Assembly (NCBI GenBank): GCA_947630495.1
Contig: CANRHS010000002.1
Location: 1-56,194, forward strand
Length of the DNA: 56,194 nucleotides
Origin: an uncultured Bacilli bacterium
GTDB taxonomy: Bacteria; Bacillota_I; Bacilli_A; RF39; UBA660
Direction: 5' to 3'
Shown: positions 4,090 through 21,553 of the stretch, piece after piece
How the letters are laid out: every line of letters starts with the position of its first letter
How positions within the stretch are numbered: position 1 is the stretch's first letter
The notes under the pieces: generated by a model
What the model saw: only the letters and a program-made list of their open reading frames with translations
Databases searched by the model: none
What the model was told of the DNA's origin: nothing
Translations under genes and position numbers: made by a program

Positions 4090-4192
4090 TTAAATCACCT
4101 ACTTAATTATAAGTAATTTTTTCGAATTTAGCAAGTTTTTTGTCAAAATTTAACAAAAGTATGTTATAATTAACTAGTACTTGCTCGTGTGG

Positions 4193-4276
4193 CGGAACTG
4201 GTAGACGCGCACGACTCAAAATCGTGTATCTTTGATGTAAGGGTTCGATTCCCTTCACGAGCACCAAATTGAAATT
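4193..4276 (+). tRNA. tRNA-Leu (anticodon CAA), CCA encoded
   Basis: Acceptor stem GCTCGTG/CACGAGC, anticodon loop CTCAAAA, long variable arm, GGTTCGATTCC T-arm, 3' ACCA. Promoter ttgtca...tataat lies just upstream. Confidence 0.93.
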
Positions 4277-5408: not shown

Positions 5409-7169
5409 ATGTTAAAATTATTTAAAAATTTAGAGAAAAAAGATTATATATTTGCTTTATTTGCATTTTTGTTAATTGCTTCTCAAGTATGGTTAGAATT
5501 AAAAATGCCGGATTATATGTCTGAGATTACTAAACTAGTTCAAACTGAGGGTAGTAAAATGGGGGATATCCTTATAAATGGAGGATATATGTTGCTATGT
5601 GCTCTTGCTTCTTTAGTATGTGCAATTATAACCGGTTATTTAATTTCAAATGTTGCAGCTAGATTTTCTAAGAATGTTCGAAAGAAACTCTTTAATAAAG
5701 TTATGGATTTATCAATGGCTGAAGTTAAAGAATTTTCAACTAGTAGTTTAATTACTAGAACAACTAATGATATAACCCAGGTTCAAATGTTTATCGCGAT
5801 GGGGTTACAGATGTTAGTTAAAGCTCCCCTTACGGCAATTTGGGCAGTTACCAAAATCTTGAATAAAAGTTGGCAATGGAGCGTTTTAACAGCCGTTGCC
5901 GTTGTTATTCTGTTATCAACCGTTGGAGCAATTATGATAATTGTTATGCCAAGATTTAAAATAGTTCAAAAATTAATTGATAGAGTTAACAATGTAACAA
6001 GAGAAAACTTAACCGGTATTCGAGTTATTAGAGCCTTTAATGCTTCCGAGTATCAAGAAAATAAATTTGAAGATGTTAATACAAAACTTACTAATACTCA
6101 AATGTTTAATCAAAAGACATTTGCTGTTATGCAACCAGTTATGTATTTAGTTATGTATTTTTTAACCTTAGCTATTTATATAATTGGAATATATTTAATT
6201 AAGAATAGTGTAATGGCTTCAAAGATTAGTATTTTTGGAGATATGGTTGTATTTTCATCTTATTCAATGCAAGTTATCATGTCATTCTTAATGCTTGCTA
6301 TGATATTCATGATTTTACCTCGGGCTAACGTTTCAGCAATTCGTATCAATGAAGTTTTAGATACTAAGATAAGTATTAAAAATGGTAAGTTAAAAAGTAC
6401 CAAAACCGGAGAAGTTGGAACCGTTGAATTTAGAAATGTTAGTTTTAAATATCCTGATGCTGAAGAATATTTATTAAAAGATATATCCTTTAAAGTTAAA
6501 AAAGGAGAAACTGTTGCCTTTATAGGTTCAACCGGAAGTGGAAAATCAACTTTAATTAATTTAATTCCAAGATTTTATGATGCAACGGATGGGGAAGTTT
6601 TAGTAGATGGTATCAATGTTAAAGATTATGATTTAGAATATCTTTATAATAAACTTGGTTATGTCTCTCAAAAGGCAGTTATGTTTAATAATACAGTTGA
6701 GGGTAATATTAAATATGGTGATAATGGTAAAGAAAAAAGTGATGAACTTGTTAAGAAAGCCTTAGAAGTAGCTCAAGCAGAAGAATTTGTATCTAAGATG
6801 GATATGAAAGAAAACTCTATGATTGCTCAAGGAGGAACTAATATTTCAGGAGGTCAAAAGCAAAGATTATCTATTGCAAGAGCAATCGCTAGAGAACCCG
6901 AAATTTATATATTCGATGATTCCTTCTCAGCCCTTGACTATAAAACCGATTCCAAATTAAGACATGAATTAAAAGAATACACGAAAGATGCTACTACTTT
7001 AATTGTTGCCCAAAGAATTGGAACTATCATGAATGCCGATAAAATAATCGTGTTAGATAAAGGAAAATGTGTTGGAGTAGGAACCCATAAAGAACTTCTT
7101 AAAAATTGTGAAGTTTATAAACAAATTGCCCTATCTCAACTATCAAAGGAGGAGTTAGAAAATGCCTAG
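5409..7169 (+). CDS. ABC exporter permease/ATPase, degenerate-site subunit of a heterodimer
   Basis: Six-TM region plus NBD. Walker A GSTGSGKST, signature ISGGQKQ, Walker B IYIFDD followed by S. The catalytic Glu is replaced by Asp, as in LmrC/TM287-type subunits. Confidence 0.92.
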   Translation: MLKLFKNLEKKDYIFALFAFLLIASQVWLELKMPDYMSEITKLVQTEGSKMGDILINGGYMLLCALASLVCAIITGYLISNVAARFSKNVRKKLFNKVMDLSMAEVKEFSTSSLITRTTNDITQVQMFIAMGLQMLVKAPLTAIWAVTKILNKSWQWSVLTAVAVVILLSTVGAIMIIVMPRFKIVQKLIDRVNNVTRENLTGIRVIRAFNASEYQENKFEDVNTKLTNTQMFNQKTFAVMQPVMYLVMYFLTLAIYIIGIYLIKNSVMASKISIFGDMVVFSSYSMQVIMSFLMLAMIFMILPRANVSAIRINEVLDTKISIKNGKLKSTKTGEVGTVEFRNVSFKYPDAEEYLLKDISFKVKKGETVAFIGSTGSGKSTLINLIPRFYDATDGEVLVDGINVKDYDLEYLYNKLGYVSQKAVMFNNTVEGNIKYGDNGKEKSDELVKKALEVAQAEEFVSKMDMKENSMIAQGGTNISGGQKQRLSIARAIAREPEIYIFDDSFSALDYKTDSKLRHELKEYTKDATTLIVAQRIGTIMNADKIIVLDKGKCVGVGTHKELLKNCEVYKQIALSQLSKEELENA

Positions 7170-9468
7170 ACCTAGAAAAATTGAAAAAGCTAAAAATTTT
7201 AAAGGTTCAATTAAAAGATTATTTAAAGAATTAAGTCCATTTAGAGTTTTAATTATCATTGGCTTAATCTTAGCAGCCTTAGGTTCTGTTCTTTCCATTA
7301 TGGCTCCATCAAGATTATCCGATTTAGTTGATAAGATATCGGAAGGATTAGTTGTTAATACTAAGAACTTAGAAACAATTACTAAAAATGTTCAAGGAAG
7401 TTTAAGTGAAGATAAATTAAAAGAAAGTATGCCTCTTATTCTAAATATTAAATTAGATGAGGCTAAAGTTTTAGAAGTTATGACAAGTAATGTGTCAAAT
7501 GAAGAAAAACAAGAATTTCAAACCTTTCTAACTTCTATTAATCCTACTAATCAAGAAGAGATGCTTACTAAATTAAAAGAATTACCCTTAAGTATTTTAA
7601 AGATAATCATGCCTGATTCTACTTATAAAGGAGTAACAATTACAACTTCTGATAAGTTAGAATTACTTAAATTAGATAAAGATAATTTAAAAAATATTAA
7701 TATTCCAGATAGCATTGCTAAAGTAATGTTTACGGAATTTAAAATAGATAAGCAAGTAATAACGGAGCTTGATCAAGCTAAATTTCTTAAAATAATTAGT
7801 ACTTTAGATAAAGATAGTGAAGCAAGCGAGTTATATTCTAAGATAGATACAATGCCAACTAGTATTAGAAAATCTGTTGAACCAGTTTTTGACATTGAAG
7901 GCATAAAAAGAATAGTTATTTTCTTAGTAGCTTTATATTTAGTATCTGCTTTATTTACTTATATTGAATCTATTTCGATGACCATTGTTGCTAATAAATT
8001 TGCAAAAAATCTTCGAAGTAGAATTTCTACCAAGATAAATAAATTACCACTTAAATATTTTGATAAAAATCAAACGGGAGATATCCTTTCAAGAGTTACT
8101 AATGATGTTGATACAATTGCTCAAAGTATGAACCAATCTTTTTCTACTTTAGTAAGTGCTATAACTTTATTTATTGGAACAATTATCATGATGTTTGTAA
8201 CGAACTTTACAATGGCAATAACGGCTATTTTAGCAAGTTTAATTGGATTTATCTTTATGTTTAAAATATTGAGTAAATCTCAAAAGTACTTTGTTTTAAG
8301 ACAAAAGTATTTAGGTGAGATTAATGCTCATATTGAAGAAATTTATTCGGGACTTAATGTTGTTAAAGCTTATAATGGTAAAAATGAAGCCAATCTTGAA
8401 TTTGATACTTTAAATGAACAAGTTTATAACGCGAACAGAAAGAGTCAATTCTTATCAGGCTTAATGCCACCGATGATGAACTTTATTGGTAATTTTGGCT
8501 ATGTTGCTGTTTGTATAGTTGGAGCCTTATTAACGATGAATGGTACTATTAAATTTGGAGTAATTGTTGCCTTCATGACTTATGTAAGATTATTTACATC
8601 CCCTTTATCTCAAATAGGACAAGCCATGACCTTCCTTCAAACAACTGCGGCTGCCAGTGAAAGAGTCTTCGAGTTTGTTGATGCCGAAGAAATGCCAAGT
8701 GAAGAAAATTTAACAAAAGTTTTAGATAAAAGTAAAGTTAAAGGTGATATCGAGTTTTCCAATGTTGAATTTACTTATGATGGAAATAAAACTCCAACGA
8801 TTAAAAACTTCAGTGCGAAAGTTAAATCTGGAGAAAAAATTGCTATTGTAGGTCCAACTGGAGCTGGTAAAACCACGATGGTTAACTTACTCATGAAATT
8901 TTATGATATTAATAAAGGAGATATAAAAATAGATGGCGTCTCAACTAAAGATTTAACCAGAGAAAATATTCATAGTTTATTTACAATGGTCCTTCAAGAT
9001 ACTTGGTTATTCGATGGAACAGTTAAAGAAAACATTATTTATAATAGGGAAGGAGTATCTTTAGAAAGAGTTAAAGAAGTCTGTGAAGTTGTAGGATTAG
9101 ACCATTTCATTAAAACTTTACCTCACGGGTATGATTCAAAAATAAGTGAAAGTGATAATGTTTCAGCCGGACAACGTCAGTTATTAACAATTGCTCGAGG
9201 AATGCTTGAAGACTCACCTTTCTTAATTCTTGATGAAGCAACTAGTAATGTTGATACCAGAACTGAAGAGTTAGTTCAAAGTGCTATGGATAAATTAACT
9301 GAAGGTAGAACCTCATTTATAATTGCCCATCGTTTATCAACAATTAAAAATGCTGATTTAATCTTAGTAATGAAAGATGGTAACATTATAGAACAAGGTA
9401 CTCATGATGAATTAATGAATAAAAAAGGCTTCTATGCTGACCTATATAATTCTCAATTTGAATTATAA
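7162..9468 (+). CDS. ABC exporter permease/ATPase, consensus-site subunit, with large TM1-TM2 insertion
   Basis: Overlaps the upstream gene by 8 nt. Walker A GPTGAGKTT, deviant signature VSAGQRQ, Walker B FLILDEATS. An extra segment of about 200 aa lies between the first two TM helices. Confidence 0.92.
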   Translation: MPRPRKIEKAKNFKGSIKRLFKELSPFRVLIIIGLILAALGSVLSIMAPSRLSDLVDKISEGLVVNTKNLETITKNVQGSLSEDKLKESMPLILNIKLDEAKVLEVMTSNVSNEEKQEFQTFLTSINPTNQEEMLTKLKELPLSILKIIMPDSTYKGVTITTSDKLELLKLDKDNLKNINIPDSIAKVMFTEFKIDKQVITELDQAKFLKIISTLDKDSEASELYSKIDTMPTSIRKSVEPVFDIEGIKRIVIFLVALYLVSALFTYIESISMTIVANKFAKNLRSRISTKINKLPLKYFDKNQTGDILSRVTNDVDTIAQSMNQSFSTLVSAITLFIGTIIMMFVTNFTMAITAILASLIGFIFMFKILSKSQKYFVLRQKYLGEINAHIEEIYSGLNVVKAYNGKNEANLEFDTLNEQVYNANRKSQFLSGLMPPMMNFIGNFGYVAVCIVGALLTMNGTIKFGVIVAFMTYVRLFTSPLSQIGQAMTFLQTTAAASERVFEFVDAEEMPSEENLTKVLDKSKVKGDIEFSNVEFTYDGNKTPTIKNFSAKVKSGEKIAIVGPTGAGKTTMVNLLMKFYDINKGDIKIDGVSTKDLTRENIHSLFTMVLQDTWLFDGTVKENIIYNREGVSLERVKEVCEVVGLDHFIKTLPHGYDSKISESDNVSAGQRQLLTIARGMLEDSPFLILDEATSNVDTRTEELVQSAMDKLTEGRTSFIIAHRLSTIKNADLILVMKDGNIIEQGTHDELMNKKGFYADLYNSQFEL

Positions 9469-9483
9469 TTTATAATAGTTAAT

Positions 9484-9522
9484 AGAAATCTATAATCAAA
9501 TATTAATATAGATTTCTTTTTG
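9484..9522 (+). terminator. intrinsic terminator after the ABC pair
   Basis: 11-bp stem agaaatctata/tatagatttct with a 12-nt loop, followed by a T-run. Confidence 0.75.
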
Positions 9523-9539
9523 TTATTGGTAAAAAGTTG

Positions 9540-9594
9540 TTGTATTTTTTAATTTTATCATATATAATAAGGTTGCAAATTATTAAATAATTTG
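9540..9594 (+). promoter_or_regulatory. promoter of the TIR operon plus 19-bp perfect palindrome
   Basis: TTGTAT (9540-9545), 17-nt spacer, TATAAT (9563-9568). CAAATTATT-A-AATAATTTG (9576-9594) lies immediately downstream, at about +1 to +20. Confidence 0.45.
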
Positions 9595-9622
9595 AATATA
9601 TTTATTGAAGAGGTAGTAGTTT

Positions 9623-11197
9623 ATGGTTTTTAAATGTAAAATGTGTGGTGGAGACATAAAACCAATTGAAAATACTAATACAGGAAAATGTTTGTATTGT
9701 AAAAGTGTGATGACTTTACCAAACTTAGATGATGAAAAGAAAGTAAATTTATATAATCGAGCTAATGAATTAAGACTTGCAAGTGAATTTGATAAAGCAT
9801 ATCAAGTATATGAAGAAATTTTAGAAATAGATAACAAAGAAGTCGAAGCTCATTGGGGACTATTACTATGTAAATATGGAATCGAATATGTAGATGACCC
9901 TAAAAGTAAGAAGAAAATACCAACCTGTCATAGAACCTTAACGGATTCAATATTAACCGAAAGAGATTATAAGTATGTAGTAAAAAATTCATATGGCGAA
10001 GCTTTAGAGTTATATCAAGAAGAAGCCAAGAAAATAAATGAAATTCAAAAAGGAATCTTAGAAATATCTAATAAGGAAGAGCCATATGATGTCTTCATTT
10101 GTTATAAGGAAACTGATGATATGGGAGAAAGAACCCATGAAAGTGTCATAGCCGAAGATATCTATGAAGCCTTAACCAAAGAAGGATATAAAGTATTCTT
10201 TTCAAGAATAACCTTAGAAGATAAATTAGGAAAAGAATATGAACCCTATATCTATTCAGCCTTAAAAACAAGTAAAGTAATGTTAGTAGTAGGAACTTCA
10301 AAAGAACGCTTTGAAGCCGTCTGGGTAAAAAATGAATGGAGTCGTTTCAAAGAATTTATGAAAAAAGATAAATCAAAAGTAATGATTCCAGTATATAGTA
10401 AGATGGATGCTTATAAATTACCTGAAGAATTTTCTAATTTACAAGCTCAGGATATGAATAAAATTGGAGCCATGCAAGATTTAATTCGAGGAATTAAAAA
10501 GATTTTAGCCAATCCCAAAGAAAATAATAATATAAATGAATATTTAGAAAAAAGATTAGAAGAAGCAAATGATGGGGTTAAAAGTCTTGGTAATGGTAGA
10601 TATGAAGTAACTGAAATTAAAGAAAAATTACCTTCATGGTATTGGGGATTTGGAATAATAGTTACAGCTATAGCATCATTCATTGCATTTGCAATTGCTA
10701 TTGATAATGGTGGTGCAAACTTTTATATAAATGGTAATATGTTTTTTAATTATAATCCAAATATATTAAAAAAAATACAAATTACACTTAGTTTTATCTT
10801 GTTATATATTATTGCAATCGGTATAATAAAAGCTACTTCTAAATTCGGCTATAAAATAAGTAATTATTGTTATGCACTATCTTTAGCGGTTTTACTTGTT
10901 TTTGCATATATAGGTTTACAATATGGTATTTTAGTTAATAATGTTCTTTTGAGTTTTATTGTTATTCCAATTATTATATTAATGATAGTAAATCCTAAAT
11001 GGTATATAGATTCAAGAAAAAAAACAATTGTTGATGAAGATGGTAAAGATAAAATAGTTAAGAAAAATGAATATATTAGAAATAACTTTGTAAGCAAAGA
11101 AAAACAACTTTTGAAAAATAGTATTATTTTAGGAATATTTATAATTGCTCTTATAGTATATTTTATCCTTGCTAAATTTTACTATAAAGTTATATAA
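9623..11197 (+). CDS. Zn-ribbon / TPR-like / TIR-domain protein with 5 predicted TM helices (paralog 1)
   Basis: CxxC-x14-CxxC (KCKMCGG...CLYCKS) and a helical hairpin, then TIR_2-type motifs YDVFICYKETDD, VFFSRITLED, VMLVVGT and AVWVKNEWSRF (candidate catalytic Glu). Hydrophobic helices run from about aa 335 to the C-terminus. Confidence 0.85.
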   Translation: MVFKCKMCGGDIKPIENTNTGKCLYCKSVMTLPNLDDEKKVNLYNRANELRLASEFDKAYQVYEEILEIDNKEVEAHWGLLLCKYGIEYVDDPKSKKKIPTCHRTLTDSILTERDYKYVVKNSYGEALELYQEEAKKINEIQKGILEISNKEEPYDVFICYKETDDMGERTHESVIAEDIYEALTKEGYKVFFSRITLEDKLGKEYEPYIYSALKTSKVMLVVGTSKERFEAVWVKNEWSRFKEFMKKDKSKVMIPVYSKMDAYKLPEEFSNLQAQDMNKIGAMQDLIRGIKKILANPKENNNINEYLEKRLEEANDGVKSLGNGRYEVTEIKEKLPSWYWGFGIIVTAIASFIAFAIAIDNGGANFYINGNMFFNYNPNILKKIQITLSFILLYIIAIGIIKATSKFGYKISNYCYALSLAVLLVFAYIGLQYGILVNNVLLSFIVIPIIILMIVNPKWYIDSRKKTIVDEDGKDKIVKKNEYIRNNFVSKEKQLLKNSIILGIFIIALIVYFILAKFYYKVI

Positions 11198-11215
11198 TAG
11201 AGATGTAGGTGTAAT

Positions 11216-12775
11216 ATGGTTTTTAAATGTAAGATGTGTGGTGGAGACATAAAACCAATTGAAAATACTAATACAGGAAAGTGTTTGTATTGTAAAAGTG
11301 TGATGACTTTACCAAACTTAGATGATGAAAAGAAAGTAAATTTATATAATCGAGCTAATGAATTAAGACTTGCAAGTGAATTTGATAAAGCATATCAAGT
11401 ATATGAAGAAATCTTAGAAATAGATAACAAAGAAGTCGAAGCTCATTGGGGACTATTATTATGTAAATATGGAATTGAATATGTAGATGACCCAAAAAGT
11501 AAAAAGAAAATACCAACCTGTCATAGAACTTTAACAGATTCGATATTCACCGAAAGAGATTATAAGTATATAGTAAAAAATTCATATGGAGAGGCTTTAG
11601 AGTTATATCAAGAAGAAGCCAAGAAAATAAATGAAATTCAAAAAGGAATCTTAGAAATATCTAATAAGGAAGAGCCATATGATGTCTTCATTTGTTATAA
11701 GGAAACTGATGATATGGGAGAAAGAACCCATGAAAGTGTCATAGCCGAAGATATCTATGAAGCCTTAACCAAAGAAGGATATAAAGTATTCTTTTCAAGA
11801 ATAACCTTAGAAGATAAATTAGGAAAAGAATATGAACCCTATATCTATTCAGCCTTAAAAACAAGCAAAGTAATGTTAGTAGTAGGAACTTCCAAGGAAC
11901 ACTTTGAAGCCGTTTGGGTAAAAAATGAGTGGAGTCGTTTCAAAGAATTTATGAAAAAAGATAAATCAAAAGTAATGATTCCAGTATATAGCAAGATGGA
12001 TGCTTATAAATTACCTGAAGAATTTTCTAATTTACAAGCCCAGGATATGAATAAAATTGGAGCCATGCAAGATTTAATTCGAGGAGTTAAAAAGATTTTA
12101 TCCAATCCTAAAGAAAGTAATAATATAGATGAATATTTAGAAAAAAGATTAGAAGAAGCAAGTGATGGTGTTAAAAGTCTTGGTAATGGTAGATATGAAG
12201 TAACAGAAATTAAGGAAAAGTTACCTGTATGGTATTGGATGTTTATAATAGCAATTACATTTATCTTGTTTATGGCATTCTTAATATTCTATTCAAATGA
12301 AGAAAGTTTTTTTCAAGATTATGAAAAAATTTATAATCCTAATATATCTAGGCTTTTATTGGCAATACTTGGCTCCTTATCAGTTTACGTTGCTGGAGTA
12401 GGAATAATTAAAGTTTCTTCTAAGGTTGGATATAAAATGAGTAATTATTGTTATTCAATAGTTTTGATAGTATTACTTGTGGAAGCATATATAGGTTTAA
12501 GTTTTAATACTTTAGTTAATTTTATGTGGTATTTTATTGTTATTCTAATTATTATGTTAATGGTAGTAAATCCTAAATGGTATATTGATTCAAGAAAAAA
12601 AACAATTGTTGATGAAGAAGATAAAGATAAAATAGTTAAGAAAAATGAATATATTAGAAATAACTTTGTAAGCAAGGAAAAACAATTTTTGAAAAATAGT
12701 ATTATTTTAGGAATATTTATAATTGCTCTTATAGTATATTTTATACTTGCTAAATTTTACTATAAAGTTATATAA
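11216..12775 (+). CDS. Zn-ribbon / TPR-like / TIR-domain protein with 5 predicted TM helices (paralog 2)
   Basis: The first ~335 aa and last ~65 aa are almost identical to paralog 1. The central TM segment is diverged. It starts 18 nt after paralog 1 behind a taggtg RBS. Confidence 0.85.
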   Translation: MVFKCKMCGGDIKPIENTNTGKCLYCKSVMTLPNLDDEKKVNLYNRANELRLASEFDKAYQVYEEILEIDNKEVEAHWGLLLCKYGIEYVDDPKSKKKIPTCHRTLTDSIFTERDYKYIVKNSYGEALELYQEEAKKINEIQKGILEISNKEEPYDVFICYKETDDMGERTHESVIAEDIYEALTKEGYKVFFSRITLEDKLGKEYEPYIYSALKTSKVMLVVGTSKEHFEAVWVKNEWSRFKEFMKKDKSKVMIPVYSKMDAYKLPEEFSNLQAQDMNKIGAMQDLIRGVKKILSNPKESNNIDEYLEKRLEEASDGVKSLGNGRYEVTEIKEKLPVWYWMFIIAITFILFMAFLIFYSNEESFFQDYEKIYNPNISRLLLAILGSLSVYVAGVGIIKVSSKVGYKMSNYCYSIVLIVLLVEAYIGLSFNTLVNFMWYFIVILIIMLMVVNPKWYIDSRKKTIVDEEDKDKIVKKNEYIRNNFVSKEKQFLKNSIILGIFIIALIVYFILAKFYYKVI

Positions 12776-12793
12776 TAGAGATGTAGGTGTAAT

Positions 12794-14917
12794 ATGATTT
12801 TTAAATGTAAGATGTGCGGTGGAGACATAGAACCAATTGAAAATACCAATACAGGAAAGTGTTTGTATTGTAAAAGTGTGATGACTTTACCAAACTTAGA
12901 TGATGAAAAGAAAGTAAATTTATATAATCGAGCAAATGAATTAAGACTTGCAAGTGAATTTGATAAAGCATATCAAGTATATGAAGAAATTTTAGAAATA
13001 GATAATAAAGAAGTTGAAGCTCATTGGGGACTATTATTATGTAAATATGGAATCGAATATGTAGATGATCCCAAAAGTAAAAAGAAAATACCAACTTGTC
13101 ATAGAACCTTAACAGATTCAATATTAACCGAAAGAGATTATAAGTATGTAGTAAAAAATTCATATGGAGAGGCTTTAGAGTTATATCAAGAAGAAGCCAA
13201 GAAAATAAATGAAATTCAAAAAGGAATCTTAGAAATATCTAATAAGGAAGAACCATATGATGTCTTTATTTGTTATAAAGAAACTGATGATATGGGAGAA
13301 AGAACTCATGAAAGTGTCATAGCTGAAGATATCTATGAAGCCTTAACAAAAGAAGGATATAAAGTATTCTTTTCAAGAATAACCTTAGAAGATAAATTAG
13401 GAAAAGAATATGAACCTTATATCTATTCAGCCTTAAAAACAAGTAAAGTAATGTTAGTGGTAGGAACTTCAAAGGAACACTTTGAAGCCGTTTGGGTAAA
13501 AAATGAATGGAGTCGTTTCAAAGAATTTATGAAAAAAGATAAATCAAAAGTAATGATTCCAGTATATAGTAAGATAGATGCTTATAAATTACCTGAAGAA
13601 TTTTCTAATTTCCAAGCCCAAAATATGGATAAAATTGGAGCTATGCAAGATTTAATTCGAGGAGTTAAAAAAATTTTAACAGCCCCTAAAACAAATAATG
13701 ATATAGATGAATATCTAGAAAAAAGATTAGAAGAAGCAAGTGATGGAGTTAAAAGTCTTGGCAATGGTAATTATGAAGTTGTTCAAGTAAAACAAAAATT
13801 ACCAGTTTGGTATTATGTATTTGTAATTTCAATGTTTTTTATTACCTCATCATTGATGCTTACTTGTGTAAGCACGACAAACTTTAATATTCTTTCTACC
13901 TTTGGATATGATTCAGTATTACCATTCTTTAAAGCAACTTTTTATATAATGTTTATAGTTGGAGGACTAGGAATAGCAGCTTTAATAGCAAAACTTACCT
14001 ATCGAAAAACTTATAAATTAGCTAAATCAATTTATTTAATTATGTTATTAATCATCTATATTTTAGCTTTAATACTTTTAAATAAATATATAATAGTTTT
14101 TATATATTGGTATTTATTAGGAATTTCTCTTCTAGTCTTATATTTTGTAAATCCTAAATGGCATCTAGATACAAGTTCTAAAGTTATTGTTGATAGAGAA
14201 GGAAGAGATGCTTTAGAAGAAAAAAATAAGTTTATTAGAGAAAATTTTAAAATAAAAACAACTTATCCAATTAAAACAAAATATATAATTATAGCTATGG
14301 CTATTTGCTTTCTAATATATGTTGGTTGCTTCTATAAAAATTTCTTAAGAAATAATTCTAATTCTTATAATGAAAGTATTTCTCAAATAAAAATAAAGAG
14401 AAATTATATAAATATGCGAAGTGAACCTAAAATTTATAGTTCTTATTATAAATTAAATTATATTGGATTTGTAAAAAAGGGTGAAGTTTATAACATAATA
14501 GATAAAGTTTATAGTGAACCTCCATCTACTTATGAATTTAATATAGATAATAATTGTAGTTATTGGTATTTAATTGAAACTAAAAATAAAATTAAAGGAT
14601 ATATATGTGGAGCAGTATCCGATAATATATTTGCTGAAGAAATAAATAAACCATTTATTTCTTCACAATCTAATGAAAGAAATGAAAACTTATCTCAACT
14701 TGAAATAGTTAATAATTTTATAAGAATAAGAGAAACTCGAAGTGCTAATAGTCAAAAATTAGGAAATGTCTATAGAGGTGAAATTTATACCATTTATGAA
14801 CAGAAAAAAATTGATAAAGTTAATTGGTATAAAATAAAAACTAATGAAGGAATAACGGGATATATATCAGGTGGAAAAGAAAATGAATATATAAAGATAT
14901 TAGAGAGGAAGGGATAA
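12794..14917 (+). CDS. Zn-ribbon / TPR-like / TIR-domain membrane protein with two C-terminal SH3b-like domains (paralog 3)
   Basis: Same N-terminal module and its own version of the 5-TM region. A C-terminal extension of about 190 aa has two SH3b-like units (INMRSEP...GEVYNII...WYLIETKNKIKGYICG and IRIRETRS...GEIYTIY...WYKIKTNEGITGYISG). Confidence 0.85.
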   Translation: MIFKCKMCGGDIEPIENTNTGKCLYCKSVMTLPNLDDEKKVNLYNRANELRLASEFDKAYQVYEEILEIDNKEVEAHWGLLLCKYGIEYVDDPKSKKKIPTCHRTLTDSILTERDYKYVVKNSYGEALELYQEEAKKINEIQKGILEISNKEEPYDVFICYKETDDMGERTHESVIAEDIYEALTKEGYKVFFSRITLEDKLGKEYEPYIYSALKTSKVMLVVGTSKEHFEAVWVKNEWSRFKEFMKKDKSKVMIPVYSKIDAYKLPEEFSNFQAQNMDKIGAMQDLIRGVKKILTAPKTNNDIDEYLEKRLEEASDGVKSLGNGNYEVVQVKQKLPVWYYVFVISMFFITSSLMLTCVSTTNFNILSTFGYDSVLPFFKATFYIMFIVGGLGIAALIAKLTYRKTYKLAKSIYLIMLLIIYILALILLNKYIIVFIYWYLLGISLLVLYFVNPKWHLDTSSKVIVDREGRDALEEKNKFIRENFKIKTTYPIKTKYIIIAMAICFLIYVGCFYKNFLRNNSNSYNESISQIKIKRNYINMRSEPKIYSSYYKLNYIGFVKKGEVYNIIDKVYSEPPSTYEFNIDNNCSYWYLIETKNKIKGYICGAVSDNIFAEEINKPFISSQSNERNENLSQLEIVNNFIRIRETRSANSQKLGNVYRGEIYTIYEQKKIDKVNWYKIKTNEGITGYISGGKENEYIKILERKG

Positions 14918-14919
14918 AA

Positions 14920-16065
14920 ATGGCTTTATATGAAGTAATTAGAAAAGAGAAGGATGATGATAATATAATTTGGAGATATCCAAAAAATAAGTTTAATACA
15001 TCATCTCAATTAATTGTTCATGAAGGACAAGAAGCAATATTTTATAGTAATGGAAAGGCTTTGGATTTATTTGGCCCAGGAAAGTACACTTTAGAGACTA
15101 ATAATATACCACTTCTAAAGAAACTAATTGGACTTCCAACTGGAATAAAAAGTGCTTTTCAATCAGAGGTTTATTTTATTGATAAATCTGAAAAAACTTC
15201 AAAATGGGGAACTAGTAGTAAGATAGAGTTTTTAGAACCAGTTTACAATTTTCCAATTGCAATTGGTGCTTGTGGTGAAATGCGATTTATTATATCTGAT
15301 TCAAGAAAATTTTTATTAAAATTAGTTGGAGTTAAAAAGAATTTTGATGAAGAAAGTATTGATGATTTTTTTCAATCCCAAATCTTATTAAAAGTTAAAA
15401 ATTATATTTCTGAGATTATAACCGAAGATAAAATATGTATTTTTGAAATTGATCGAAATTTAGAAAAGTTTAGTTTAGAATTACAAAAAAGATTAGAAAA
15501 TGATTTTGATGAATTTGGAATAAAATTAAATAAATTCTTTGTTACAAATATAGCTAAACCAGAAGATGATAAAAGATATTTAGAATTTAAAGAATTATAT
15601 TTTAAAAAATCAGTAGCTGTTGCTGAGGCGGAGTTAAAGCAAAAACTTGATTTAATTGAAGAAGATACAAAAGCCAAAAAAACAATTATAGCATCAGAAG
15701 CTGAAGCTATTAAACGAGCAAAAGAAGGATATACTTATCAAGAAGAGCAATCATTCAAGATTGGAGAGAAAGTTGCTAGCAATCAAGCAGTTGGCCAATA
15801 TACTAATGTTGGAGTAGGTCTTGGAATGATGAGTGGTATTGGTACACCTTTAAGTGGAGAAGTAAGTAAACAAGTGACAACTGCCTTTACTAAAGTTGAC
15901 AACAATATAATCTGTCAAAATTGTAAAATGCCAAATGAATCTAATACTAATTTTTGCAAGTATTGTGGCTTTAAATTAAGTAAAGATAGAAGTTGCCCTA
16001 AATGCTTAGCAAAAGTATCTGAAGATGCTAAATTTTGTTCAAAATGTGGAGAAAGGTTAGATTAA
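14920..16065 (+). CDS. SPFH (band-7, YdjI/COG4260-like) protein with C-terminal double zinc ribbon
   Basis: Collinear resemblance to B. subtilis YdjI-type SPFH proteins. C-terminal CQNC...CKYCG and CPKC...CSKCG. Starts 2 nt after the TIR-3 stop. Confidence 0.75.
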   Translation: MALYEVIRKEKDDDNIIWRYPKNKFNTSSQLIVHEGQEAIFYSNGKALDLFGPGKYTLETNNIPLLKKLIGLPTGIKSAFQSEVYFIDKSEKTSKWGTSSKIEFLEPVYNFPIAIGACGEMRFIISDSRKFLLKLVGVKKNFDEESIDDFFQSQILLKVKNYISEIITEDKICIFEIDRNLEKFSLELQKRLENDFDEFGIKLNKFFVTNIAKPEDDKRYLEFKELYFKKSVAVAEAELKQKLDLIEEDTKAKKTIIASEAEAIKRAKEGYTYQEEQSFKIGEKVASNQAVGQYTNVGVGLGMMSGIGTPLSGEVSKQVTTAFTKVDNNIICQNCKMPNESNTNFCKYCGFKLSKDRSCPKCLAKVSEDAKFCSKCGERLD

Positions 16066-16066
16066 T

Positions 16067-17290
16067 ATGAAAAATAAAAAATTATTTACGATTATTGGAA
16101 TATTTCTATTTATAATTACAATACTTATTTTATTTATTACAACTTATAAATCTAGTAATTTAGAAATAATTACGACAAAAGATTCAGTAGCTTATAAATA
16201 TGCTAAAGAAAAAAAATTAAAAGTAAAAACTATATCAGAAAGTGAATTAATAAATTATAAGAAAAACATAGAAACCTATGCTTATAATAAAAATAATTCT
16301 GGTATTGAAATTACAAGTTATAATGGTATAAGTAAAGAATTAATTATTCCAAATGAAATAGATGGTTATAAAGTATTAAGTATTCATGAAGGAGTATTTA
16401 AAGATAAAGATATAACTAAAATAACTTTACCTAAAAGTATAATAAGCATAAGTGATGAAGATTATAAAGATATAAAATTAGTTTGTTATAAAACAGAATT
16501 ATGTGATCATTTAAAAAGTTTAAAAGATTATGATGTTACAGTTTTAAATGATTCTGATAATTATAATTTTAATTTAGATAAGTTAGAATTTGAATATAAT
16601 AAAGATACTACTTATGAATTAACTAAGTATAATGGAACCTCTAAAGATATAATAGTACCTGATTATATAAATGGTTATCAAGTTGATAAGTTAACTTTTG
16701 AGGTTGATAAAAATATAAAAAGTATTTATATACCTAAAACAGTAACGCAAATTAATTTAAATATTTTAGAAAGTCCTTTTAATACTTTATTTTGGATTAT
16801 TCTAATCTTTGATGCTTTAGCTATTATAGTATTTATAGTTATTAATTCAATAGTATCTAGTAAAAACTTAACTGAAAGTTTTAATGCCTCTCCACTTAGA
16901 TTAATTTCAATTATTTATATAATTTTTGAATTAATATATTCAATTATTGCCAAATTTGGTAATTATGATATAAAAGGTTTTATTTTAGTATCAAGTATTG
17001 TTTTAATAGTTTATATTTTATTTACAATTCTATTATTAGCATCTAAAAAGAAAATTGAAGAATATGATAAAAAAATTAGTAATATAGATTTATTTATTAA
17101 AGATACTTTAAATCTAATAGAAGATATTGATGTTACTGATTATGATAAAGAATTAGTTTCAGAAATTGAAAAGATTAATGTTTTAGTAAAATATTCTGAT
17201 CCTGTATCAATTGATGAAGTTAAAGAAATTGAAAAAGAGATTACAAAATTAATTGAAAAGAGAAATAGAATAATTAAAGATAATAAGTAG
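16067..17290 (+). CDS. polytopic membrane protein with extracellular BspA-type LRR-like repeats and a cytoplasmic coiled-coil tail
   Basis: N-terminal TM. Two copies of the motif T(S/K)YNG(I/T)SK(E/D)(L/I)I(I/V)P(N/D)..(I/Y)(D/N)GY(K/Q)V, typical of LRR_5 surface proteins. Three more TM helices, then a K/E-rich tail. Starts 1 nt after the SPFH stop. Confidence 0.6.
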   Translation: MKNKKLFTIIGIFLFIITILILFITTYKSSNLEIITTKDSVAYKYAKEKKLKVKTISESELINYKKNIETYAYNKNNSGIEITSYNGISKELIIPNEIDGYKVLSIHEGVFKDKDITKITLPKSIISISDEDYKDIKLVCYKTELCDHLKSLKDYDVTVLNDSDNYNFNLDKLEFEYNKDTTYELTKYNGTSKDIIVPDYINGYQVDKLTFEVDKNIKSIYIPKTVTQINLNILESPFNTLFWIILIFDALAIIVFIVINSIVSSKNLTESFNASPLRLISIIYIIFELIYSIIAKFGNYDIKGFILVSSIVLIVYILFTILLLASKKKIEEYDKKISNIDLFIKDTLNLIEDIDVTDYDKELVSEIEKINVLVKYSDPVSIDEVKEIEKEITKLIEKRNRIIKDNK

Positions 17291-17311
17291 AAAAACTTGA
17301 CAAATAAAAAT

Positions 17312-17360
17312 AAAAATGTATAATAATGTAAAAAAAATACATTTTTATTTTTTTTATTGT
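17312..17360 (+). terminator. A/T-rich hairpin plus long T-run ending the TIR operon
   Basis: aaaaatgta (17312-17320) pairs with tacattttt (17338-17346), followed by attttttttt. An all-A/T stem, so only moderate confidence. Confidence 0.5.
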
Positions 17361-17406
17361 AAAAAAAATGAAATTATGATGTATAATAGAAATGGGAGAT
17401 GATAAA

Positions 17407-18534
17407 ATGTTAACAAGTATTATGTTAAAAGACTATACTACTTTTATAAATGAAACTATTTTTGAATTTAAAGCAACAAATTATAAAATTCTTGAAGACT
17501 CAAACGTTGGTGCCAATAGAATTTTAAAAGGTGCTTTATTTATTGGTGAAAACGCATCAGGAAAAACTCAAGTATTAAAAGCTATTGTTTTTCTTTTAAA
17601 TTTATTTTTTGATAATTCAGAACAAAATTTTAGTATTTATAAATCTTTATATACTAAAGGGAATAAATTTAGTTTAACTTATACGTTTGATGTATCAGGT
17701 AATGAAATAAAATATGAAATTACAATAGATACTAATTCTATAAGTGCTGAAAAATTATATGTAAATGGGGAATTAAAATTAGACAGATTAAATAAATCAG
17801 GCCAAACAAACTTTAAAGAAGAAAGAGATATAAAAGATATTGATGAAACTTTATCTTTAGTAAAATTGGAATATTATAACACAAGGTTTGATAATGATTC
17901 TATTTTAAATGAATGGTTTGATTTTCTAAAAAATTCTATATATTTGAATTGCTTAATTGGTATATCTGCTAGTTTTAATCCTATAAAAGCCGATGAGCAA
18001 AATATTTATAAATATTTAAGAAAGAACGATACTAAAGAATTAAATAAATTTATTAAAAATTTAGGTTATAATAGTGAAATAGTATATGATTCTGAAAAGA
18101 GTGATGTAAATGCAATTGGCTTAAAAAAAACTGGAACTGATGTAGTTATCCCTTATACATTAGAATCAAACGGCAACAAAGCATTTATAAATACAGTTTT
18201 ACCAATTATCTATGCAACTAAAAATAATTGTATGTTAATTGTTGATGAATTTAGTAGTGGTCTTCATAATGAACTTGAAGAAGCCTTAATAAAATATTTC
18301 TTTAATAATAGTAAAAATTCTCAAATATTTTTTACTTCCCATTCAACTAATTTACTTGATACTTGTATCTTAAGACCTGACCAAATATATACTTTTAAAT
18401 TTGATAATAAAAAGGGAACGATAATTAAAAGAGTTTCTAATGAGAATCCTAGAGAATCTCAAAATATAGAAAAAATGTATTTAAATGGAGTTTTTGATGG
18501 AATGCCAGAATACAATAAAGAATTTAAGGATTAA
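17407..18534 (+). CDS. ABC-type (AAA_21-like) ATPase, AriA/RloA-like
   Basis: Walker A GENASGKTQ, Walker B MLIVDEFSSGLH, H-loop-like FFTSHS. ATG 17407 follows a GGGAG RBS (the ORF track begins at 17392). Confidence 0.8.
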   Translation: MLTSIMLKDYTTFINETIFEFKATNYKILEDSNVGANRILKGALFIGENASGKTQVLKAIVFLLNLFFDNSEQNFSIYKSLYTKGNKFSLTYTFDVSGNEIKYEITIDTNSISAEKLYVNGELKLDRLNKSGQTNFKEERDIKDIDETLSLVKLEYYNTRFDNDSILNEWFDFLKNSIYLNCLIGISASFNPIKADEQNIYKYLRKNDTKELNKFIKNLGYNSEIVYDSEKSDVNAIGLKKTGTDVVIPYTLESNGNKAFINTVLPIIYATKNNCMLIVDEFSSGLHNELEEALIKYFFNNSKNSQIFFTSHSTNLLDTCILRPDQIYTFKFDNKKGTIIKRVSNENPRESQNIEKMYLNGVFDGMPEYNKEFKD

Positions 18535-19270
18535 CAAAGAAAAAGTAATTGGTCAAGTAGTAGTTGTTGTTGAAGGGGAAGAAGATGAATTTAAATTATT
18601 AAAACATATATTTACAAAGATTTTAGGATATAGTTATATTCAAATGAAACGAAATAAAGTAATGCAACATACATTTAAAAATAATCAAAATACTGTGATA
18701 GTTGCTAATACTAAAAGTTCTAGTATATCTTCTATAATGGAAGATAAAGATTATAAAGATAAATTATATAACTTATTAAAAAAAGAATATAATAAAACTT
18801 TAAAAAATACATTTATTTATATATTATGGGATAGAGATAAAGATACTAATAAAGATTCTAATTATATTAAAGCACTTGAAACTTATGCTAATTCTATGGA
18901 TAATGATTATGAAATGAATGGTTTATTGCTTATAAGTTATCCTTGTCTTGAAGCATATAATTTATCTAATTTTGATAAGAAATTATGGAAACGTGACTTT
19001 AAAACTAGTTTTGATGCTAAGAAAACTTTTCATATGTCTTTAAATTCTATAAAAGATATTAATGAAAAGACAATTTTATTAGCTGTTTATAACATGCATC
19101 ATAGTATGCTAGAGTATGGAATAAATAACTATGACCCATCTAATTTTAAAAGAATAAACAAAAGAATATTTCGACTTGAAAATGAGTATTTTAAACATAA
19201 TAAAATGTTTAATGCATTATCTCTTATTAGTATAATGTTAGTTGATTTAGGTATAATTGAAGAAATTTAA
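18485..19270 (+). CDS. RloB-like / Toprim-domain protein (AriB/OLD-nuclease-like partner)
   Basis: Overlaps the ATPase 3' end by 38-50 nt. VVVVVEGEEDEFKLL (Toprim EGxxE), ILWDRDKD and ISYPCLEAY resemble the RloB motifs (vfDrD, SnPcFElW). Confidence 0.6.
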   Translation: MEFLMECQNTIKNLRINKEKVIGQVVVVVEGEEDEFKLLKHIFTKILGYSYIQMKRNKVMQHTFKNNQNTVIVANTKSSSISSIMEDKDYKDKLYNLLKKEYNKTLKNTFIYILWDRDKDTNKDSNYIKALETYANSMDNDYEMNGLLLISYPCLEAYNLSNFDKKLWKRDFKTSFDAKKTFHMSLNSIKDINEKTILLAVYNMHHSMLEYGINNYDPSNFKRINKRIFRLENEYFKHNKMFNALSLISIMLVDLGIIEEI

Positions 19271-19287
19271 AAAGTTACAAAAAAGTG

Positions 19288-19316
19288 TTGACTCAAAGAA
19301 AATACAATGGTATAAT
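19288..19316 (+). promoter_or_regulatory. sigma-A type promoter for the RNA ligase gene
   Basis: TTGACT (19288-19293), 17-nt spacer, TG-extended TATAAT (19311-19316). Confidence 0.6.
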
Positions 19317-19343
19317 ATAGATACATAAAGAAAGGAGAATATT

Positions 19344-19973
19344 ATGGTAATTAAAAAAGAAATTTACCCTAAAACTGAAAGAGTAAAATGTGAAGGAGAT
19401 AAACTTTATGTAACTGAAAAACTAGATGGAAGTAATTTAGTATTCTTCAAAAAAGATGATATACTTTATATTGCTATGAGAAATAATATTATTCCAATTA
19501 ATGAACTTGAGGAAAATAAAGGTATTCTTTATAAAGGTTTATATGAATGGATAAATGATAATATTAATGAGTTAGATTTACATAATGGAAGTGCTATTTG
19601 TGGTGAATGGCTTGGAATGGGAAAATTAAAATATGATGTTGGTGAGTTTGATAAAAGATACTATTTATTTGCTAAAGCCAATATTGATGATGATTATAAT
19701 TTATATAATCTTATCTATGATCATGATTTATTAATTTATCCCTTTGTTAAAGGTAGTATTCCTAAATGTATAGGAATAGTTCCTGAAGTTGCAACCTTAA
19801 ATGTTTTACCAAATAAGGAACATTTAGATAGTTTATATCAAAAATATACTGCTAAAGTAAAAAGAAATGTTGAAGGGTTTGTTGTAAATTATAAAAATGT
19901 TATATCTAAGTATGTTAGAATGAAAAATGGAAAATTACAAGAACATTTTGATAATACGAATCGAGGAGCTTAA
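19344..19973 (+). CDS. ATP-dependent RNA ligase family protein (nucleotidyltransferase domain only)
   Basis: Ligase motif I EKLDGSN (Lys at about 19419-19421), motif III CGEWLG, motif IV VEGFVV, motif V SKYVRMKNGK. 209 aa. Confidence 0.75.
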   Translation: MVIKKEIYPKTERVKCEGDKLYVTEKLDGSNLVFFKKDDILYIAMRNNIIPINELEENKGILYKGLYEWINDNINELDLHNGSAICGEWLGMGKLKYDVGEFDKRYYLFAKANIDDDYNLYNLIYDHDLLIYPFVKGSIPKCIGIVPEVATLNVLPNKEHLDSLYQKYTAKVKRNVEGFVVNYKNVISKYVRMKNGKLQEHFDNTNRGA

Positions 19974-19992
19974 ACTAAGGTTTAAGTTTTTT
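19969..19992 (+). terminator. intrinsic terminator after the RNA ligase
   Basis: cttaaac-taag-gtttaag hairpin followed by tttttt. Confidence 0.65.
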
Positions 19993-20074
19993 CCATAATT
20001 TGGGAAAAAATATTTCAGATAATATTAGATTAAATAAAAAAAATATGATAGAATTAAGTAAGGAAGTGATGATT

Positions 20075-21553
20075 ATGAATTTATCAAAGTCAAAATATTG
20101 TCTAGGAGTAACTTGTAAAAAGAAATTATGGTTAGAAACTAATAAGCCAGAAGTTAAAGAAGAAGAGAATGGTCAAGTTTTATTAAATGGAACTTTAGTT
20201 GGAGAATATGCAAGGAACTTACTTGGAAAATCGGTAACGATACCTTTTAATAAAGACTTAAATGAAATGATTAATGATACTAAAAAATATTTACAAGAAG
20301 ATAATATTGTAATCTGTGAAGCATCATTTAATTATAATCATAATTTTTGTAGTGTTGATTTACTTAAAAAGGAAAAAGATAGTTATATAATATATGAAGT
20401 TAAAAGTTCAACTAGTATTCATGATATTTATTTAGATGATATAACTTATCAATATTATATATTAAAGAACTTAGGTTATAATGTTATAAAAACTTGTCTT
20501 GTTTTATTAAATCCTTTCTATGTAAGACATGGAGAAATTGATGTTAAAAAATTATTTAAAATAAAAGATGTAACCGATACTGTTTTAGAGAAAGTAAAAG
20601 AAATAGATAAAAATATTCAAGATATAAATTTATATATGGAAAATAAAGAAGAACCTAAATCAGAGTTATCTAAAAATTGTAAAGATTGTCCTTATTTTGC
20701 TTATTGTACTAAAGACTTAGATTCTAATAATGTTTTTAAAGTTAGATATATGCAAATGAGAAAAATGTTAGATTTATATAATAAAGGAGTAACTAGTTTT
20801 CCGGATTTATTAAAGGAACCTATTAATCCTAAATTTAAACAGCAAATAGAATTTACTTTGTATGATAAAGAACCTTATATTAATGAATATAAGTTAAAAG
20901 AGTTTTTGAAAACCCTTCATTATCCATTATATTTCTTGGATTTTGAAACTTATCAAGTTGCTATTCCTAACTATGATGGAGTAAAACCTTATATGCAAAT
21001 ACCTTTTCAGTATTCTTTGCATTATATAGAAAGTGAAGATGGAGAGTTGAAACATAAAGAGTTTTTAGGAGAAGTTGGAGTTGACCCAAGATATAGTCTT
21101 GCTAAGAGATTAGTTATGGATATTCCAGTTGACTCATGTGTCATGGCTTATAATATGCGATTTGAAAAGATGGTTATTCGAGAACTTGCCTCTTTATATC
21201 CTGATTTAAGTGATAAATTACTAATAATTCATGATAATATCGTTGATTTAATGGTACCATTTAAAAATAGAGAGTATTATACTAAAGAAATGGAAGGTTC
21301 CTATTCCATTAAAGCCGTGCTTCCAGCTTTATTTCCTGATGATCCAAGTCTAAATTATCATAACTTAGAAGATGTTCATAATGGAAGTGAGGCAAGTTCT
21401 AGTTTTGTTGAACTTGAAAAATTATCTCAAGAAGAACAAGATAAAATTAGAAATAGTTTACTAAAATATTGTTCTCTTGATACCTATGCTATGGTAAAAA
21501 TCTGGGAAAAACTAAAAGAAGTAACCAAAGAAAAAGTTAAAATCAGAAACTAA
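20075..21553 (+). CDS. DUF2779-type protein (Cas4-like PD-(D/E)xK nuclease N-domain with Cys cluster, plus C-terminal exonuclease-like domain)
   Basis: N-terminal SKSKYCLGVTCKKKLWL. D...YEVKSS nuclease motif. CKDCPYFAYC cluster. ATG 20075 follows an aaggaag RBS (the ORF track starts at 20000). Confidence 0.7.
   Translation: MNLSKSKYCLGVTCKKKLWLETNKPEVKEEENGQVLLNGTLVGEYARNLLGKSVTIPFNKDLNEMINDTKKYLQEDNIVICEASFNYNHNFCSVDLLKKEKDSYIIYEVKSSTSIHDIYLDDITYQYYILKNLGYNVIKTCLVLLNPFYVRHGEIDVKKLFKIKDVTDTVLEKVKEIDKNIQDINLYMENKEEPKSELSKNCKDCPYFAYCTKDLDSNNVFKVRYMQMRKMLDLYNKGVTSFPDLLKEPINPKFKQQIEFTLYDKEPYINEYKLKEFLKTLHYPLYFLDFETYQVAIPNYDGVKPYMQIPFQYSLHYIESEDGELKHKEFLGEVGVDPRYSLAKRLVMDIPVDSCVMAYNMRFEKMVIRELASLYPDLSDKLLIIHDNIVDLMVPFKNREYYTKEMEGSYSIKAVLPALFPDDPSLNYHNLEDVHNGSEASSSFVELEKLSQEEQDKIRNSLLKYCSLDTYAMVKIWEKLKEVTKEKVKIRN

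Follow-up and report, generated by a model that had tools for sequence, protein, structure and literature searches.

We analyzed a chromosomal window of 56,194 nucleotides from an uncultured Bacilli bacterium (GenBank assembly GCA_947630495.1, contig CANRHS010000002.1, positions 1 to 56,194 of the forward strand; G+C content about 26%). It contains a cluster of five plus-strand genes (9623–17290), i.e., three paralogous TIR genes, a gene for an SPFH protein with a double zinc ribbon and a gene for a protein with four transmembrane helices (4TM protein). The genes are separated by gaps of 18, 18, 2, and 1 nt, and the two 18-nt spacers between the TIR paralogs are identical (TAGAGATGTAGGTGTAAT). 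We focused on TIR paralog 3 (12794..14917, plus strand), which starts with ATG and encodes 707 residues. Its parts follow in the order zinc ribbon, TPR-like helical unit, TIR domain, five transmembrane (TM) helices, and two SH3b domains. A first, sequence-only reading of this gene had likened it to a Toll-like receptor, with the TIR domain inside the cell and the SH3b pair outside.

The N-terminal zinc ribbon (residues 1–33; 12794..12892) has its cysteines C5, C8, C23, and C26 invariant in four alignments, and the AlphaFold2 model places β-strands at residues 11–31. The helical unit (residues 38–151; 12905..13246) comprises one TPR-like repeat, a conserved hairpin with the motif YGIEYVDDP...PTCHR, and a long helix. 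A weak Pfam TPR_1 match at residues 43–70, profile matches to consensus TPR proteins and the secondary structure of the model agree on this assignment. The TIR domain (residues 155–296; 13256..13681) was found by Pfam (TIR_2, PF13676, residues 157–278, 42.3 bits compared with a cut-off of 28, E 1.2e-10) and by structural modeling. An AlphaFold2 model of the complete head, i.e., residues 1–335, calculated from 50 sequences reached a pLDDT of 85.5, contained the conserved β-hairpin and ended in a TIR fold. Foldseek matched it to the TIR domain of AbTir (7uxu) with a TM-score of 0.77 on the target and an rmsd of 3.1 Å; further structural neighbors were C. elegans TIR-1, RPP1, Roq1, RPS4, SPARTA, MAL, MyD88, and TRIF.

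TIR NADases carry their catalytic glutamate in the helix following strand βC. In the head model, E238 (codon 13505–13507, motif WVKNEW) sits in the αC-equivalent helix 233–248 after strand 219–224 (βC). It is the candidate catalytic residue, is invariant across four alignments (A1, A2, A4, and A5) and, in a weak alignment, pairs with the WCLMEL glutamate of the flax L TIR domain. Because this invariant glutamate occupies the known catalytic position, the TIR domain of paralog 3 is probably an enzyme.

TM helices were called with a crude in-house Kyte-Doolittle script, for window proteins and homologues alike. In paralog 3, the scan found helices at residues 342–360, 381–399, 412–430, 433–451, and 495–513. 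They form a TM region (residues 342–513; 13817..14332) that includes a conserved, basic, predicted cytoplasmic loop 4 (NPKW...) and has P454, W456, N478, and K488 conserved in the alignment. Loops 1 to 4 contain 1, 5, 1, and 10 lysines plus arginines, which points to an N-in/C-out orientation. The pattern holds for the whole family: five TM helices were found in 104 of 120 homologues, and in every one of these 104 loops 2 and 4 together were richer in lysine and arginine than loops 1 and 3 (means of 4.5 + 11.4 vs. 1.4 + 0.9). No signal peptide was found at the N-terminus of the 340-residue part preceding the membrane. From the charge bias of the loops, the lack of a signal peptide and the four-cysteine zinc ribbon at the N-terminus, the TIR head is hence predicted to be cytoplasmic and the C-terminus to lie outside, as the sequence-only reading had proposed. 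We also considered paired cysteines as a sign of an extracytoplasmic tail. With 0, 1, 2, and 3 cysteines in 60, 7, 21, and 14 tails, respectively, they were not decisive.

The C-terminal tail begins at residue 514 (nt 14333), in agreement with the ectodomain at 14340–14914 announced earlier. Two SH3b repeats, both predicted extracytoplasmic, follow each other at residues ~528–618 (14375..14647) and ~633–704 (14690..14905). Pfam SH3_3 (PF08239) matched paralog 3 in two stretches with 48.1 bits compared with a cut-off of 27 (E 1.3e-12), the best one in the second repeat covering residues 644–693. An AlphaFold2 model of residues 519–707, based on 21 homologous tails, had a mean pLDDT of 87.5 and was all-β, with two seven-stranded units. 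Its best Foldseek matches in the PDB were wall-binding SH3b modules, either single or in tandem. The top one was 4krt (E 2.5e-7), the wall-binding tandem of SH3_3 domains from Psm, an endolysin of a Clostridium perfringens phage. Other PDB matches were YrvJ, the SH3b-bearing NlpC/P60 enzymes BT_1314 and NlpC, and the SH3b domains of lysostaphin and ALE-1; the best matches in BFVD were phage endolysins. The predicted fold is thus the tandem SH3b that had been suspected from the letters, and the pair may tether the protein to peptidoglycan or to a wall polymer.

Two further genes complete the cluster. The SPFH gene (14920..16065, plus strand) starts 2 nt after the TIR gene and encodes a predicted cytosolic protein with a Pfam Band_7_1 domain (E 1.4e-41) and matches to DZR/Zn_Ribbon_1 in its C-terminal double zinc ribbon. 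It is homologous to B. subtilis YdjI/SamI (BLASTP, 27% identity, E 3e-21), including matching C-terminal zinc ribbons; the B. subtilis-type pspA-ydjGHI reference locus was located with a primer sequence printed in PMC8581546. YdjI is a soluble, cytosolic protein that two membrane proteins recruit to the membrane, where it organizes PspA, and the SamGHI/YdjGHI system is a sensor of membrane and alkaline stress that also influences wall synthesis (PMC8581546; bioRxiv 10.64898/2026.02.06.704340). Clostridial SPFH partners carry two to three zinc-ribbon repeats in tandem at their C-terminal ends (WDCxCGxK..GNFCxNCG), encoded as 60–80-nt direct repeats (L049 4018–4256, L074 4338–4579, L078 5084–5312, L079 10506–10765, L083 5108–5275); the window version has two.

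The third component, G3 (16067..17290, plus strand), is the 4TM protein of 407 residues, in which an LRR-like insert separates TM1 from TM2 and the cytosolic tail contains KYSDPVS. It matched no Pfam family, even at E ≤ 1, and none in NCBIfam or PADLOC. A family name could not be assigned from a word search either, which gave only 11 homologues. Throughout the 4TM family (16067–17290 and the homologues in L037–L087) the cytosolic tail carries the conserved motif (K/R)Y(S/A)DPVS...RN..C. Bacilli versions have an extracellular insert of about 110–220 residues between TM1 and TM2, with segments resembling BspA-type leucine-rich repeats (LRRs), e.g., ITSYNGISKELIIPNEIDGYKV.

At nine loci with full-length homologues, the SPFH and 4TM genes followed the TIR gene in all nine, and the wider neighborhoods differed. 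We then called and clustered the open reading frames (ORFs) at 78 loci from species-representative genomes. All 78 had the TIR head, in a total of 119 genes that occurred singly or in tandems of up to four; the SPFH family was present at 56 and the 4TM family at 53, and no fourth family recurred in more than eight. Across the related-locus counts, SPFH genes were linked to TIR heads in 56–67 loci and 4TM homologues in 40–53. The TIR, SPFH, and 4TM families are co-inherited as a three-component module. Of the single-gene reading proposed earlier, the TIR-TM-SH3b protein itself stands, and its autonomy does not, since the gene belongs to a module with SPFH and 4TM partners.

TIR paralogs 1 (9623..11197, plus strand, 524 residues) and 2 (11216..12775, plus strand, 519 residues) share one build, i.e., the zinc ribbon-TPR-TIR head and five TM helices without an ectodomain. 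TIR_2 lies at residues ~157–280 in all three paralogs and scored 45.4 bits in copy 1 (E 1.3e-11) and 46.5 bits in copy 2. Both copies stop five residues after TM5, and SH3_3 was found in paralog 3 only. The head DNA of the three paralogs is 94–97% identical, compared with 56–78% for the TM regions; between copies 2 and 1, the values are 96.8% and 78%, respectively, and the last ~150 nt of these two copies are 95% identical. Compared with the nearest orthologues, the protein identity is 72–79% in the head and 31–38% in the TM region. The identities within the window, along with the identical 18-nt spacers, suggest that the three paralogs are mosaics shaped by gene conversion or unequal crossing-over; gene conversion acting on the heads, or a swap of tails, appears to be the best explanation for the contrast between heads and TM regions within this genome. 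Among relatives, SH3b repeats, one to four in number, follow TM5 in almost all five-TM paralogs. By this measure, copies 1 and 2, which lack the ectodomain, are unusual and a local oddity, and the idea that they act as co-receptors or amplifiers remains speculation.

To see how far the family extends, we compared copy 2 with 1.84 billion cluster representatives and obtained 3,891 at E ≤ 1e-30. In nearly all of the best 150, the first ~300 residues were 50–64% identical, at total lengths of 404–3,073 residues. Between Bacilli and Clostridia, this 300-residue head keeps an identity of 55–62%. TIR_2 together with SH3_3 at full length occurred in more than 100 clusters at 90% identity; given these and the 3,891 head representatives, the TIR-TM-SH3b arrangement is not rare. 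A TM scan of 148 representatives gave one helix and a tail, usually of 200–2,400 residues, in 62, two to six helices in 31 and none in 55. Pfam analysis of 60 representatives found TIR_2 in all 60 and TPR families in about half, next to DUF6273 (15), LRR_5 (6), LRR_8 (3), Ank (2), RCC1 (2), MORN (1), and SH3_3 (1). In the relatives checked, LRR_5, DUF6273, RCC1, and SH3_3 were positioned after the TM helix and hence predicted to lie outside. Some members are thus TIR-TM-LRR proteins, with LRRs of the BspA type. From the position of these tail domains past the TM helix, TIR proteins that span the membrane and present a binding domain outside appear to be a general design of the family.

The DUF6273 lectin-like fold is a target of diversity-generating retroelements in phages. 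It has been described as similar to C-type lectins, binds ligands and occurs in the receptor-binding proteins of phages (PMC10743442). Many Clostridial members end in this domain (L049, L058, L071, L073, L074, L078, L079, L083, L086); in the Christensenellales metagenome-assembled genome (MAG) at L058, a tandem of three TIR genes encodes proteins of 924, 989, and 2,318 residues, each with a DUF6273-like end. Repeat scans of seven loci revealed no template-repeat/variable-repeat (TR/VR) pair of a diversity-generating retroelement. One candidate, L049 8245–8386/9406–9547, showed substitutions of all kinds and was rejected as a duplicated coding segment of a C-terminal coiled coil.

Carriers are scattered patchily across Bacilli and Clostridia, in at least 570 of 185,579 species genomes. 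They include the cultured Lacrimispora, [Clostridium] aerotolerans DSM 5434, Pseudoflavonifractor capillosus, and Eubacterium sp. MSJ-21. NCBI names the homologues only "TIR domain-containing protein". The closest relatives of the window are MAGs of uncultured gut Bacilli, the top segment being 95% identical to a rabbit-gut bin (L023). With tblastn, the head had no match in 50,697 phage and 72,556 plasmid records, and megablast of window positions 9000–20000 against plasmids and phages gave no match. In IMG/VR, the head was found in two of 2.9 million contigs (L090 and L091), with 55–57% identity. Given the lack of matches in these phage and plasmid records and the near absence from IMG/VR, a mobile-element or plasmid origin was rejected.

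Upstream of the cluster lies an intergenic region of 154 nt (9469..9622, plus strand), which is the likely promoter region because it is the sole sizeable gap before the five genes. It gave matches to promoter consensus only; a search for riboswitches or other Rfam elements upstream of the cluster found none. An ABC exporter pair (586 and 768 residues; 5409–9468) directly precedes this region. In a related 1.5-Mb Bacilli genome (L005–L007, 13014–17525), the pair is matched by a MarR-586-771-residue set downstream of the same module, i.e., local synteny with rearrangement, and the module is flanked there by polysaccharide deacetylase genes. Further upstream in the window are a tRNA gene (4183–4263, plus strand) and, on the minus strand, two adjoining genes for proteins of 154 and 156 residues, each with two XRE-type helix-turn-helix domains (1579–2587). 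ORFs near 30.7–34.1 kb resemble those of EF-G and EF-Tu, judged by size only.

Downstream of the cluster, a perfect σ70 consensus (TTGACA-16-TATAAT, 17297–17324) lies ahead of AbiL-like genes. The first of these (17392–18534) encodes an AbiLi-like AAA_21 ATPase (PADLOC AbiLi, E 4.8e-48), and the overlapping second gene (18485–19270) a 261-residue protein without a family. Together (17392–19270) they are probably an AbiL-type two-gene defense pair, which is not kept alongside the TIR module at other loci. They are followed by a gene of the RNA-ligase family PF09414 (19344–19973) and a Cas4-like/DUF2779 (UU173 family) nuclease-type gene (20000–21553), which suggests a small defense-type islet downstream of the TIR operon.

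Assignment of the TIR proteins to a known defense system failed. In PADLOC, only PDC-S66 matched, weakly (30.6 bits) and at profile positions 119–246 of 282, i.e., with the TIR part alone; NCBIfam ThcB4 scored 24.9 bits, far below its cut-off of 220. Thoeris had no PADLOC match, and no gene for a ThsA-type effector was found in the window or in the clustering of the 78 loci.

TIR NADases, i.e., SARM1, AbTir, plant TIRs, and SPARTA, require oligomerization for activity. As our first choice among several readings, we tentatively propose that paralog 3 is a wall-tethered, SPFH-organized TIR NADase that may answer envelope or extracellular cues. It would be one subunit of a chromosomal three-component membrane system built from at least one zinc ribbon-TIR-TM(-SH3b) protein, the cytosolic SPFH/zinc-ribbon scaffold and the 4TM protein. 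The SH3b pair would hold the protein to peptidoglycan or a wall polymer, and the TM partners would recruit an SPFH oligomer to the membrane, as YdjG/H recruit YdjI/SamI in B. subtilis. This oligomer may corral the TIR heads and keep them apart until a disturbance between wall and membrane, or an external ligand, lets them cluster; phage adsorption or ejection, lysins, and wall-active agents are possible triggers. Clustered TIR domains could then build a composite active site and cleave NAD+, leading either to NAD+ depletion with growth arrest or to an ADP-ribose-derived signal. The LRR, DUF6273 lectin-like, RCC1, TPR, and Ank tails of relatives would serve as other sensors that feed a shared output head. 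A role in recognition or conflict is suggested by the paralog arrays, the fast-evolving, swappable tails of ligand-binding type on a constant head, the patchy distribution and the AbiL-like pair nearby.

Several observations weigh against this proposal. The topology comes from hydropathy and charge bias, not from a dedicated predictor or experiment. Copies 1 and 2 lack an ectodomain. About one-third of the superfamily representatives had no TM helix in the crude scan, so the general trigger cannot be an extracellular cue. A separate ThsA-like effector is absent, and the output would therefore have to be NAD+ depletion itself or run via the 4TM protein. The system is not in PADLOC, its head is missing from the phage and plasmid records, and several of its contexts are housekeeping. 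The label of an immunity protein, given to paralog 3 at the outset, is accordingly an assumption. A chromosomal, PADLOC-negative pattern flanked by housekeeping genes fits envelope homeostasis as well as immunity.

Envelope homeostasis is our second choice, possible though on balance doubtful. The module would be an envelope-stress device of the SamGHI/YdjGHI type and not immune, in which TM proteins and the SPFH scaffold monitor the integrity of membrane and wall, and the signaling output of the TIR head, be it a messenger derived from NAD or a brake on metabolism, would serve dormancy or repair. Its SPFH partner is a homologue of YdjI/SamI with the same zinc-ribbon tail, and this relative serves in sensing membrane and alkaline stress. 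The module is only found on chromosomes, is no PADLOC system, has hrcA-grpE-dnaK and polysaccharide deacetylase genes as neighbors at some loci and is kept in a reduced genome of 1.5 Mb (L020); moreover, its head is unusually conserved across classes. However, we found no PspA in the window or at any of 87 loci, and apart from a zinc ribbon neither YdjG nor YdjH showed homology to the TIR or G3 proteins, so a full SamGHI/Psp equivalent was rejected. Also, tandem paralog arrays with fast-evolving, swappable tails resemble a recognition repertoire rather than a single stress sensor, and a presence in at least 570 of the 185,579 species genomes is patchy for a homeostatic device. If the module nevertheless served envelope stress, it would be the first link of TIR NAD+ chemistry to wall or membrane homeostasis.

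An abortive-infection TIR NADase triggered inside the cell ranks third, and we consider it unlikely. Here, the zinc ribbon/TPR head would sense a cytoplasmic cue, and TM helices and SH3b domains would merely localize the protein to the wall, the septum or sites of phage entry. In line with this, the head is the conserved part with an invariant zinc ribbon/TPR unit, TM helices are missing in many relatives and the ectodomain in copies 1 and 2, and SH3b domains are usually targeting modules in lysins. The AbiL-like pair adjoins the cluster as well, but it has its own perfect σ70 consensus and is not conserved with the module. A role as mere anchors hardly accounts for variable domains of ligand-binding type past the TM helix, and nearly all five-TM paralogs retain their SH3b repeats.

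We regard it as improbable that the TIR domain is a non-enzymatic assembly domain as in TLR/MyD88, nucleating a membrane complex with the SPFH scaffold and performing no NAD+ chemistry. The scaffolding TIRs MAL, MyD88, and TRIF are indeed among the Foldseek matches, and SPFH proteins are assembly platforms. Yet none of the alignments shows any variation of the glutamate at the catalytic position, whereas scaffolding TIRs are not known to conserve it, and the clustering of the 78 loci revealed no gene for a partner TIR adaptor in the module. Finally, a host-directed or inter-bacterial effector like TcpB/BtpA or TirS is very improbable: bacterial TIR virulence factors exist and the source is a gut organism, but a signal peptide and a secretion-system gene are lacking, the TIR domain precedes five TM helices and is predicted to be cytoplasmic, and the module is conserved with its SPFH and 4TM partners.

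In the literature, we found no description of a TIR-SPFH operon or of a bacterial TIR-TM-SH3b/LRR protein, a result that is provisional as the search coverage was incomplete. A 2025 preprint cataloging TIR signaling systems does not mention SPFH, zinc ribbons, or SH3, and such architectures do not appear in a paper on TIR classification either. According to a 2024 survey of TIR systems in E. coli, bacterial TIR systems seem to lack the membrane and LRR features of the TLR type (PMC11350192), in agreement with the earlier remark that the arrangement was not known to be described for bacterial TIR immunity proteins.

Among known systems, the soluble bacterial TIR NADases and signal generators, i.e., Thoeris ThsB, AbTir, SPARTA TIR-APAZ, and TIR-STING, share with paralog 3 the TIR fold, with AbTir as one of the best structural matches, the glutamate at the catalytic position and, probably, activation by oligomerization. 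Thoeris depends on a ThsA-type effector, which is absent here. Unlike them, with their intracellular sensors, the head described here is predicted to be membrane-bound and has its own zinc ribbon-TPR-hairpin unit. PspA-YdjGHI (SamGHI) likewise sets a Band_7_1 SPFH protein with C-terminal zinc ribbons beside two membrane proteins, with a cytoplasmic zinc ribbon at the N-terminus of one; YdjG is a zinc ribbon-NTF2-like-TM protein and YdjH has a TPM domain (PMC11237479). In contrast to the module, the Bacillus system is without TIR, the only part common to YdjG and the TIR proteins is a zinc ribbon, and YdjH has no similarity to the 4TM protein. Zorya ZorAB and Kiwa resemble the proposed system as peptidoglycan-tied membrane complexes that report envelope disturbance by phages, but they have nuclease or DNA-binding outputs instead of TIR, and kinship in sequence or fold is not expected. 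The SH3b modules of Psm from phage phiSM101, lysostaphin, and ALE-1 share the tandem SH3_3 fold and are the best structural matches; in paralog 3, the fusion partner is a TIR protein embedded in the membrane instead of a peptidoglycan hydrolase.

In Toll-like and IL-1 receptors, one polypeptide carries a binding domain outside the cell, a span of the membrane and a TIR domain in the cytoplasm, as predicted for paralog 3, and both groups have paralog repertoires with varied ectodomains on a conserved TIR, in relatives of paralog 3 even with LRRs. The architectural analogy drawn from this one gene has gained weight from relatives in which one TM helix is followed by BspA-type LRRs, DUF6273, RCC1, or SH3b. 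In contrast to Toll-like receptors, the order is inverted, with the TIR N-terminal and the C-terminus predicted outside, also in the LRR_5 relatives. There are five TM helices instead of one type-I helix, an SH3b ectodomain instead of LRR or Ig, and an SPFH and a 4TM protein as partners. Moreover, the TIR domain keeps its candidate catalytic glutamate and is probably an enzyme, not a scaffold that recruits adaptors. The likeness is hence best taken as an analogy, not as membership, and common descent is unsupported beyond the TIR fold.

The paralog 3 gene is an entry to a widespread, unnamed family with a conserved TIR head, swappable domains predicted to be extracellular, recurrent SPFH and 4TM pairing, and cultured carriers. 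The known bacterial TIR systems sense infection inside the cell. It is fairly unlikely, if attractive, that this Firmicutes family consists of true cell-surface pattern-recognition receptors, in which a variable ectodomain (SH3b, BspA-type LRR, DUF6273, or RCC1) is wired to an SPFH-organized zinc ribbon-TIR NADase head. In that case, they would provide outside-in immune signaling, with phage, lysins or competitors detected at the envelope before nucleic acid enters. If signaling from outside to inside holds true, the existence of bacterial surface immune receptors becomes directly testable and SPFH/flotillin-type scaffolds gain a concrete signaling client. As such receptors, the proteins would be a bacterial counterpart of TLR logic, probably a convergent one.

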